Shown: in pieces, positions 36,520-38,255 of the stretch
How the letters are laid out: every line of letters begins with the position of its first letter
Numbering within the stretch: position 1 is the first letter of the stretch
Assembly (NCBI GenBank): GCA_022143435.1
Contig: GCA_022143435.1_3941.1
Length of the DNA stretch: 64,000 bases
From: a phage
Reading direction: 5' to 3' (one strand)
The notes under the pieces: generated by a model
Databases searched by the model: none
What the model saw: only the letters and a program-made list of their open reading frames with translations
What the model was told of the DNA's origin: nothing
Made by a program: the position numbers and the translations under genes

Positions 36520-36770
36520 CATCACTTAAGAGCCTTTCTAAGAGGGTTTTTAAGTGAGGTTCGGTATGGTACAGTAGGCTCTGGCTTGGTATGGTTTGGT
36601 GATGTTCGGTGTGGTACGGCGGTGTAAGGTATGGTATGGGTAGTTAGTCTCAGCTACATTAAAATGAGACTTACCTTTTTAAAAGGTCTTTAAAAGGGTC
36701 TTTTAATAAGGTATGGTGAGGTAGGGTTAGGCGAGGTCAGGTTTGGTAAGGTATGGGTGGATGGTAGCAG
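36520..36770 (+). repeat. Composite non-coding repeat, copy A: hairpin, (NGGTN)n pentamer tract, hairpin, 2x AAGGTCTTTTAA, (NGGTN)n tract
   Basis: Aligns with 38045-38255; see findings. Confidence 0.8.
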
Positions 36771-36849
36771 CCACGTTAAAAATCTACCAAGTTTCTAAAG
36801 AGTCTTCTGTTGAGGGTTCTTTACAAACAACTTAACAATCAACTAAAGT

Positions 36850-37452
36850 GTGGAGCTAAATGCTATGAAACTGTTAAATATCAAAATCACTGGTACTCGT
36901 CCTTTCCTGAGCCATGCTGATACTCTGTCAGACCCTTTAAACCCTCTGACAAAATATCACAAGTCTCTGTCCAGTAAACGTAAAAAGACTGACGAAGACT
37001 ATGCGCTCTTAGCAGAAAGTCAACTGGTAACTTCTTGTTGCTACGATGAGCAACTAGGTTTTGTTATGAATGGTGAGATGATTGAGGCTTGTATCAAGTC
37101 TGGTGCAAAACTCAACAAACTTGGTAAGGTAATTGACCGAGCCATTATGCTGACAGATGTAGTCTTCCCAATGACTATCAAGAACTGTCCAGCAAACCCA
37201 CAAGAACTTGCTAAGAATCCAGATTTTATCTATGCTAAATCTGTTAAGATTGGTACAGCACGAGTTATGAGCTACCGTCCAATCTTCCGTGATTGGTCTG
37301 TAGAGTTTGGTTTGATGTTCGATGAAGAGCAAATTACCCGAGAGGAACTCCTGATGGTTCTGGAAAATGCTGGCAACCTTTGTGGTGTAGGTGATTGGCG
37401 TCCACGCTTTGGTCGTTTTTCTGTAGAAGTTATTTCAGAAGGTAACGTTTAA
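36850..37452 (+). CDS. Hypothetical protein (probable start ATG 36865 after GGAG RBS)
   Basis: ORF bracketed by the composite repeats. Confidence 0.45.
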
Positions 37453-37454
37453 TT

Positions 37455-37895
37455 ATGAATACAAAAGCATTAGCAGCAAAGTTTAGTTACGGTGACACTG
37501 TATCACATTCTGAGATGGACACCTTCTTAGGTATTGTGAAGCCAACTTATCAAGGTGACATTGTTAAGTACGAAGATGAAATGAAGGCTTATGCACTTAC
37601 ACGTCTAAACCGACTTGAGAAGTTTATTGAAAAGCTTCTTAAAGAAGAGAAGATTTATCTGGTTGCTTCAATGGGTGTTGGTTATCGTGTGGTTGAACCT
37701 AAGCATCAAGCAACTATTGCAAAACGTAAAATGTCTGGTAAGATTGGTCGTGCTTTAAAGCAAGCCACTCAAGCGATTGAGAATGTGAATACTATGGCAC
37801 TTAGTCATCAAGAACGTTCACGACTGATTGAACAGCAAAACCATTTAGCTGCTATGAAAGCTAACATTAACAAGCAACGTAGAAAACCTTTCTAA
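37455..37895 (+). CDS. Hypothetical protein
   Basis: ORF; no recognised motif. Confidence 0.45.
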   Translation: MNTKALAAKFSYGDTVSHSEMDTFLGIVKPTYQGDIVKYEDEMKAYALTRLNRLEKFIEKLLKEEKIYLVASMGVGYRVVEPKHQATIAKRKMSGKIGRALKQATQAIENVNTMALSHQERSRLIEQQNHLAAMKANINKQRRKPF

Positions 37896-37903
37896 GTTGA
37901 CTA

Positions 37904-37930
37904 GGAAGCCTCTTCGGAGGCTCCTTTTTA
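37904..37930 (+). terminator. Rho-independent terminator (GAAGCCTC-TTCG-GAGGCTCC then TTTTT)
   Basis: Inverted repeat plus T-run. Confidence 0.6.
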
Positions 37931-38255
37931 AAAGGTCTTTTAAGAAGGTCTTTTAATGAGGTAAGGTGCGGTCTGGTAAGGCATGGTATGGTTGGGTGAG
38001 GTGAGGTATGGGTAGTTAATCGGAGCTACATTAAAATTCGATTACATCACTTAAAAGTCTTCTAAGAGGATTTTTAAGTGATGTTCGGTAGGGTCTGGTA
38101 GGGTGAGGTATGGGTAGTTAGTCTCAGCTACATTAAAATGAGACTTACCTTTTTAAAATGTCTTTAAAAGGGTCTTTTAACAAGGTATTGTATGGTGTAG
38201 TTTGGTTAGGTATGGTTAGGTGTGGTAAGGTAGGGTATGGAAGGATGGCAGTAGC
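37930..38255 (+). repeat. Composite non-coding repeat, copy B (one partial plus one full unit)
   Basis: Same element order as copy A; see findings. Confidence 0.8.

Follow-up and report, generated by a model that had tools for sequence, protein, structure and literature searches.

What is the function of the non-coding repeats that enclose two genes between positions 36,520 and 38,255 of a 64,000-nucleotide stretch of phage DNA (GenBank assembly GCA_022143435.1, contig GCA_022143435.1_3941.1), the whole of which is referred to here as the window? The window is derived from a Felix O1-type myovirus (Ounavirinae), and an original prediction made from its sequence had described a composite element of about 230 bp in two copies plus a partial third, recognised as no standard phage element, for which four roles were proposed: a structured non-coding RNA, a protein-binding array, a transcription-activated replication origin or the recombination boundaries of a mobile cassette. 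The explanation that best accounts for the locus as a whole is, with high probability, a type II VIPR (Viral Interference Programmable Repeat) system of the clade of Escherichia phage SUSP1, with guides that are most likely used to silence a satellite element of E. coli. The first two of the proposed roles are accordingly right in outline, while the other two are unsupported as functions. As VIPR was described only in June 2026, the remark on the non-standard nature of the element was fair; what had been missed is that the enclosed genes encode the protein partner of the RNA and that the variable positions of the repeats carry information. The feature is real, striking and was rightly flagged as unusual, yet it is a member of a described system and near-identical to the type example.

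Identity of the enclosed genes and repeats

VIPR is presented in a 2026 preprint (bioRxiv 10.64898/2026.04.26.720920), the available text of which describes an RNA-guided DNA recognition system older than CRISPR that relies on a single ~20-kDa protein and a non-contiguous code. Its parts are the RAMP-fold protein Vipr, an accessory protein (vap) and RNAs termed vrRNAs, which consist of 9-16 pentanucleotide repeats, each with a conserved GGY (Y, pyrimidine) and a hypervariable dinucleotide NN, and of an invariant structured tail; 4 repeats are the minimum for tract detection and 9-16 are typical. In SUSP1, the representative type II locus, one vrRNA lies upstream and three lie downstream of vipr-vap, all four (~100 nt) were seen by small-RNA sequencing, and vap1 boosted VIPR protection. 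According to the same text, the NN dinucleotides pair with double-stranded DNA on either strand, with one unread base between them and no protospacer-adjacent motif (PAM), and target binding represses transcription. Of the SUSP1-clade guides with identifiable targets, 18 of 20 point at an E. coli satellite, the baseplate protein of which is 72% identical to that of SUSP1 (bioRxiv 10.64898/2026.04.26.720920).

The 195-aa protein encoded by the first enclosed gene is identical to SUSP1 Vipr at 190 of 195 residues (97%), and is a small (~20 kDa) stand-alone RAMP homolog with an RRM core, a G-loop and a thumb. The open reading frame (ORF) of the second begins 3 nt past the vipr stop codon, and its 146-aa product, for which no Pfam family was found, is identical to SUSP1 vap1 at 145 of 146 residues (99%). 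The surrounding units match the SUSP1 vrRNAs module for module, including an invariant 3' tail with a pseudoknot, and four of the five tracts lie within the 9-16 repeat range, the remaining one having 6 repeats. This correspondence, together with the co-purification of the SUSP1 vrRNAs with Vipr (bioRxiv 10.64898/2026.04.26.720920, available text), supports in outline the proposals of a structured non-coding RNA and of a protein-binding array. By analogy with SUSP1, expression as ~100-nt RNAs, loading on Vipr and repression would also occur in the window phage.

Repeat grammar, leaders and tails

The repetition noted in the original prediction is real and far beyond chance, as local alignment matches positions 36613-36756 to 38087-38230 with 83% identity over 144 nt. 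The repeat search resolves an 86-nt unit occurring five times (starts at 36524, 36676, 37926, 38048 and 38150), so that the count of two copies and a partial third gives way to five tandem units flanking the two-gene cassette, two upstream and three downstream, and the 230-bp composite corresponds to two units. In every unit a leader precedes a pentamer tract, which runs into a tail; the basic unit measures ~70-150 nt, and, as had been stated, none is covered by an ORF of at least 60 aa. Eight runs of at least three GGT at exact 5-nt spacing are found in the region, on the + strand only, and none elsewhere on either strand of the whole window, while the loop motif AGCYACRTTAAAA has four mismatch-free occurrences, all within the locus. 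The leader comes in two homologous forms of one repeat family: in one it is a long hairpin (H1), in the other two AAGGTCTTTTAA boxes, and either form folds as a + strand hairpin using G.U pairs. A hairpin and tandem AAGGTCTTTTAA repeats are thus present as predicted, but as alternative leader forms rather than as separate sub-elements. In unit 4, the first 2 nt of the leader hairpin overlap the tail of vrRNA3 and the last 3 nt overlap the tract of vrRNA4.

When the region was taken from 14 relatives, the promoters, leaders and tails proved near-identical and the intervening tracts unalignable. A single 5-nt register is kept end to end in 45 of 48 tracts, which range from 30 to 105 nt. Among 536 pentamers from 45 distinct tracts, the first position is G in 79%, the second G in 98.5% and the third a pyrimidine in 100% (T in 91%), the two N positions holding ~0.15 bit each. 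Local duplications (GGTCA x3, GGTATGGTTT x3) indicate that tracts change via slippage in 5-nt steps. The short tract of vrRNA4 looks like a contracted copy, generated by such slippage, of the 10-12-repeat guide of phages VpaE1 and dune, the homologues of which (10 and 12 repeats, respectively) hold internal GGTAG-GGTCT reiterations that are missing in the window, and the contraction probably disables that guide.

The tail was compared in 83 copies from 25 loci, with counts that stem from our own motif parsing rather than from a separate prediction of structure. A pseudoknot stem (S1) forms between the 5' part of the hairpin loop and the four bases that directly follow the final repeat. It occurs in three covarying versions (GTAG/CTAC, GTGG/CCAC and AAGG/CCTT) and is fully paired in 82 of the 83 tails, and the stem of the hairpin itself (S2) occurs in four covarying versions. 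This covarying structure is the pseudoknot mentioned in the VIPR preprint. An Rfam search at a permissive threshold gave no significant match (best 22 bits, compared to a gathering threshold of 60).

Guide matches on an E. coli satellite

With the tape-measure and baseplate genes of the window as DNA query, a matching chromosomal element was found in 475 of 5,426 complete E. coli genomes (about 9%), at ~88% identity over parts of the query genes. The element, an island of ~11 kb, encodes serine recombinases and an HNH endonuclease and carries tape-measure and baseplate genes. The guides were scored on six of the 475 satellite variants (L154-L159). Under the rule of a 1-nt skip, 26 of 40 guides of vipr-carrying phages reach an NN match of at least 80% on the satellites, compared to one of 40 on the flanking chromosome. 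When the skip is set to 0, 2 or 3 nt, the satellites yield such a match for 1, 0 and 1 of the 40 guides, respectively.

Three guides of the window contribute to this signal. That of vrRNA1 matches at 29 of 32 positions inside a satellite gene of ~107 aa, at the same site in five of the six variants, and is the only window guide with a match in a coding sequence; in five of six variants all its skip bases fall at codon position 3 (wobble). That of vrRNA5 matches at 19 of 22 positions in a promoter-like stretch, 29 nt ahead of the gene that opens the main satellite operon, a site matched at 17-19 of 22 in four of six variants, and that of vrRNA3 at 18 of 20 positions, 99-123 nt upstream of a satellite gene of ~236 aa, in two of six variants. 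Predicted sites of the three guides are L158 6273-6319 (vrRNA1), L154 7537-7568 (vrRNA5) and L154 9834-9862 (vrRNA3). In the controls these three guides reach at most 0.75 on flanking DNA and at most 0.77 under skips of 0, 2 and 3 nt. The best match of vrRNA2 (15/18) is not above chance for so short a guide, since a skip of 0 nt gives 0.89 with the same guide. The longer version of the vrRNA4 guide in VpaE1 matches the satellite at 0.90. Self-targeting is not apparent, as the best match within the window is 62-77% for the four guides of at least 9 repeats, with none at 80% or above. When IMG/VR was scanned for exact matches to the vrRNA5 code, the outcome was 16 chance matches, in AT-rich environmental contigs and none extending past the seeded core; the targets are absent from that collection.

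The window phage therefore most likely silences an ~11-kb parasitic satellite of E. coli by means of vrRNA1, vrRNA3 and vrRNA5. In the proposed mechanism each unit would give rise to a vrRNA about 100 nt long, which would be bound, as shown for SUSP1, by Vipr, a small RAMP-fold protein related to Cas7/Csm3. In the model outlined in the available text of the preprint, Vipr keeps the GGY of every pentamer unpaired; in the experiments of the preprint, the two variable nucleotides pair with double-stranded DNA, skipping one base between dinucleotides, and target binding represses transcription. The putative targets comprise a small gene, an intergenic stretch ahead of a second one and the promoter-proximal part of the main operon, in a satellite whose tape-measure and baseplate genes resemble those of the phage. 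Tract hypervariability, which occurs only in multiples of 5 nt, may reflect a turnover of guide information on a fixed scaffold.

The six satellite examples (L154 4450-15790, L155 and L156-L159) occupy at least three insertion sites, namely yciI-tonB, a split DUF72 gene near yecN/yecD, and ymdF-wrbA. In E. coli strain 15A (NZ_CP077477), which carries the satellite, the island is located at about 869,200-880,550. Stretches of ~2 kb without annotated coding sequences are found in the satellite, and one variant bears a 12-repeat GGYNN tract of its own (L156 3071-3130, - strand).

Organization of the locus

Matches to the region, with 80-99% identity, come from 258 phage records, most of them from phages of Escherichia, Salmonella and Shigella in the genera Felixounavirus, Mooglevirus and Suspvirus, and the region sits inside a block of + strand early genes (Table 1). 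Promoter P1 is kept in 14 of 14 relatives examined and in SUSP1, and is presumed to be the start of transcription for vrRNA1-2 and vipr-vap. The TTGACA-containing promoters predicted next to each copy both exist, but they are not equivalent, P1 lying upstream of the whole locus and P2 downstream of it, facing the next gene.

The -35 hexamer of P2 sits in the loop of an inverted repeat (38273-38319), the arms of which, AAATAAGCTATAA...TTATAGCTTATTT, lie on either side of it. At P1 an inverted repeat (36476-36519; GGTGAGTA...TACTCACC) extends from the -10 hexamer to about +25. These inverted repeats could be operators. A gene encoding a Cro/C1-type helix-turn-helix protein (38925-39254) is located three genes downstream.

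Table 1. Features of the repeat locus and its neighbours, with positions in the window.
Feature	Position	Strand	Details
ATP-dependent DNA ligase gene	35352-36455	+	5' neighbour of the locus
P1, sigma-70-type promoter	36462-36489	+	TTGACA, 16 nt, TATACT; 11/12 consensus match; directly 3' of the ligase stop
Leader hairpin H1, unit 1	36520-36557	+	CATCACTTAAGAG...TTTTTAAGTGA; 16-bp hairpin with G.U pairs; homologous to the box-pair leader
vrRNA1	36558-36675	+	16 GGY-NN pentamers (36558-36637); tail type a (36638-36675)
Box-pair leader, unit 2	36676-36706	+	TTTTTAAAAGGTCTTTAAAAGGGTCTTTTAA; foldable as hairpin AAAAGGUC/GGUCUUUU
vrRNA2	36707-36788	+	9 pentamers (36707-36754); tail type c (36755-36788)
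vipr	36865-37452	+	195-aa RAMP-fold protein
vap1	37455-37895	+	146-aa accessory protein
Intrinsic-terminator-like hairpin	37907-37931	+	AGCCTCTTCGGAGGCT then CCTTTTT; 3' of vap
Box-pair leader, unit 3	37926-37956	+	two exact AAGGTCTTTTAA copies
vrRNA3	37957-38045	+	10 pentamers (37957-38009); tail type b (38010-38045)
H1-type leader hairpin, unit 4	38044-38081	+	inverted repeat; 20-nt arms 38044-38063 / 38065-38084, 90% complementary
vrRNA4	38082-38149	+	6 pentamers (38082-38111); tail type a (38112-38149)
Box-pair leader, unit 5	38150-38180	+	
vrRNA5	38181-38272	+	11 pentamers (38181-38238); tail type d (38239-38272)
P2, promoter of the 127-aa signal-peptide gene	38292-38320	+	10/12 consensus match; downstream end of the locus
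127-aa signal-peptide protein gene	38365-38748	+	3' neighbour of the locus

Loss of the cassette and orphan units

The original prediction had proposed that relatives be compared for variability of the cassette, and such variability is evident. The vipr-vap cassette is present in about 118 of the 258 matching records, with Vipr and vap1 proteins 97-99% conserved across three genera, and the number of units ranges from 1 to 6 between phages. Relatives without the cassette, about half, keep one or two units between P1 and P2, in the architecture P1, H1 leader, one tract, tail d and P2; a single unit is left in FO1a, mio and D1-2. From the sister genus Kolesnikvirus the whole region is absent. 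The vipr-less junctions are the exact product expected from recombination between the first and the last H1-led units, and it may be asked whether the units exist mainly for gain, loss and shuffling of the cassette, like the PeSL cassettes of T4-type phages. The recombination is a real side effect, and the proposed boundaries stand to that extent; as the function of the units it is very improbable, as homology alone would suffice for it and the GGY/NN grammar, the covarying pseudoknot and the guide-target matches would stay unexplained. The exchange is better read as a consequence of the repeated modules than as their purpose.

Complete vrRNA-like units are present in the vipr-less phages FO1a (L004 3006-3243), mio (L005), D1-2 (L007), BPS17S6 (L006) and pEC-M719 (L016). 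Of seven orphan guides, two still match the satellite (0.82-0.91). The GGY scaffold of the orphan tracts is 72% intact overall, compared to 79% in vipr-carrying phages, a difference that is not significant (p = 0.19), and degradation is evident only in FO1a (6/10 intact) and mio (4/10 intact), so a decayed scaffold as a general rule for orphan tracts was rejected. The orphan units of these five phages might be live and act in trans, either by loading on Vipr from a co-infecting phage or satellite or as decoys for the Vipr of a rival (an RNA anti-VIPR), although we regard this as rather unlikely.

Weighing of the VIPR interpretation and its alternatives

Several points weigh against the assignment as a functional type II VIPR. 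Expression, loading and repression rest on the preprint about the relative SUSP1 and not on the window phage. No promoter was found for the downstream array vrRNA3-5, and the terminator-like hairpin stands between vap and this array. With 6 repeats, vrRNA4 falls under the published range of 9-16, vrRNA2 is without an above-chance match on the satellites, and the best matches of the window guides, at 82-91%, are imperfect and come from a sample of six of the 475 satellite variants. The retention of 1-2 vrRNA-like units in vipr-less relatives is not explained by a strict model in which a guide needs its own Vipr.

The proposal of a replication origin holds that transcription from P1 through the G-rich non-template strand of the tracts forms an R-loop that primes DNA synthesis, like T4 oriF/oriG or ColE1. 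The base bias of the sense strand in the tracts (G 42%, C 8%), the strong promoter directly upstream and the neighbouring genes for replication and nucleotide metabolism (ligase, polymerase and dihydrofolate reductase) are all compatible with such a role. GC skew, however, follows the transcription blocks and shows no sign change at 36-38 kb, and R-loops need neither an exact 5-nt register nor an always-pyrimidine third position. The element is also missing from Kolesnikvirus, the NN positions match foreign DNA, and tracts in unrelated phages flip with gene direction and adjoin Vipr homologs. The fact that natural vipr-less relatives such as FO1a make do with a single unit argues against an essential origin, and such an origin at this locus is extremely improbable. 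An origin or a divergent control region would more plausibly be sought at 31019-31062, where a 21-22-bp tandem repeat (TTTTAAAAGCTATTAAAGAATC x2) coincides with the switch in GC skew and in gene orientation (about 30-31 kb). The repeat shortly precedes a 909-aa ORF (31172-33901), to which the DNA polymerase gene of relatives can be aligned.

In the Bacillus trp leader, about 11 triplets separated by 2-3-nt spacers precede a terminator and are bound by the trp RNA-binding attenuation protein (TRAP). A comparable attenuator, in which a ring-shaped protein bound to triplet-plus-two repeats steers a hairpin and U-run and thereby read-through downstream, would account for the similar grammar, for the commonest tract length of 11 pentamers, and for the type a tails, which run into TTTTT and at which terminators are annotated in the record of phage ASO1B. 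Tail types c and d, however, are without a U-run, the adjacent protein has a RAMP fold and no TRAP homolog was found, and an attenuator needs no hypervariable spacers that match another genome, which leaves this explanation with next to no likelihood.

Two-tetrad G-quadruplexes fail to account for the always-pyrimidine third position and an array of T7-type primase sites lacks the conserved cryptic base at position 4; also considered and dropped were a boxA/NusB-E site in GGUCUUUUAACAA, mimicry of RfaH ops (CGGTAG), pairing with tRNA 3' ACCA ends, antisense-strand Rho rut sites, a pseudo-ToxI antitoxin RNA and an RNA polymerase pause array.

Similar tracts in other phages

Viral contigs were scanned for a pattern of six in-phase GGTNN units, which picked up felixounaviruses, simple or coding repeats and, in addition, numerous unrelated phages whose non-coding tracts follow the same grammar in degenerate form. 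In the unrelated phages the tracts are always on the sense strand of the flanking genes, their orientation flipping with that of the genes; typically a stop codon marks their start, and GGG and a hairpin come after them. With a hidden Markov model (HMM) of the Vipr family, a homolog was found in 33 of 120 loci that had been retrieved by the DNA pattern alone, and 32 of 34 Vipr-like ORFs have a same-strand tract within 600 nt.

Two jumbo-phage contigs from IMG/VR, 3300029288_001872 (189 kb; L051-L055) and 3300029288_000079 (181 kb; L050), carry more than 10 GGYNN tracts, each 11-21 repeats long and scattered over separate gaps between genes unrelated to one another, such as those for a glycosyltransferase and a GHMP kinase. 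For most of the inspected tracts a stop codon lies within ~20 nt of the start, and GGG, a hairpin of differing sequence and a T-run come after the tract; only L050 gave a match to the Vipr HMM. Arrays, staggered arrays, ribozyme-interspersed arrays and single vrRNAs are the layouts described in the available text of the preprint, which does not mention such a dispersed one (bioRxiv 10.64898/2026.04.26.720920). In a siphovirus-like contig (L026 824-880, L086 5041-5100) a tract beside a Vipr homolog is followed by a tRNA-like minihelix, composed of an acceptor stem CTCCCTAC/GTAGGGAG and a T-arm AAGG-TTCGATT-CCTT, which is a plausible candidate for an RNase P or RNase Z processing signal.

Significance for Felix O1-type phages

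VIPR being known already, the locus adds no new kind of system. The main value of the present assignment lies in annotation, because more than 100 records of Felix O1-type phages list both enclosed genes as 'hypothetical protein' and leave the repeats unannotated or label them 'repeat_region', 'terminator' or 'promoter'. The element is not mentioned in the Felix O1 genome paper, and a literature search for transcriptome or non-coding RNA data on Felix O1-type phages found nothing useful. For the window phage the assignment offers a concrete, testable reading, in which its guides are directed at a satellite that about 9% of complete E. coli genomes contain, and satellite-directed guides bear on the host range and biocontrol use of Felix O1-type phages.

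Comparison with known systems

The TRAP site is alike in its conserved triplet plus 2-nt spacer repeated ~11 times, in being bound by an oligomeric protein and in its position upstream of a hairpin, but it has another triplet and a protein of unrelated fold, whereas the spacers of the window's repeats are informative and would serve to target DNA rather than attenuation. The PeSL elements, reportedly described by Arbiol, Comeau and Krisch in 2010 as mobile regulatory cassettes of T4-type phages, likewise have repeated promoter/stem-loop modules that flank small accessory genes in a variable region, with loss and gain by homologous recombination. They are regulatory signals only, whereas the repeats of the window would be functional RNA genes tied to the enclosed protein.

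Class 1 CRISPR-Cas systems combine a crRNA with backbone proteins (Cas7, Csm3 or Cmr4), and Vipr is related to Cas7/Csm3, but the repeat searches found no CRISPR repeat-spacer array in the window. The proteins that were scanned near the locus included no other recognisable cas gene product, although no systematic cas search was run. Between the conserved leader and tail (together ~70 nt) stand periodic GGY-NN tracts rather than contiguous spacers, and the VIPR code is non-contiguous, 2 of every 5 RNA bases reading 2 of every 3 DNA bases. VIPR also differs in that it is encoded by a virulent phage and aimed at another mobile element and in that, according to the available text of the preprint, it requires no PAM (bioRxiv 10.64898/2026.04.26.720920).

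The closest counterpart remains the type II VIPR of SUSP1. It differs in having four units, one upstream and three downstream, in its guide sequences, and in that no tail of type b was seen in it, while one unit of the window is contracted to 6 repeats. The two loci are alike in the gene pair (Vipr 97%, vap1 99%), in the position between the ligase and the next early gene, in P1, P2, the leader modules, the GGY/NN tracts and tail types a, c and d, and in guides directed against the same satellite.

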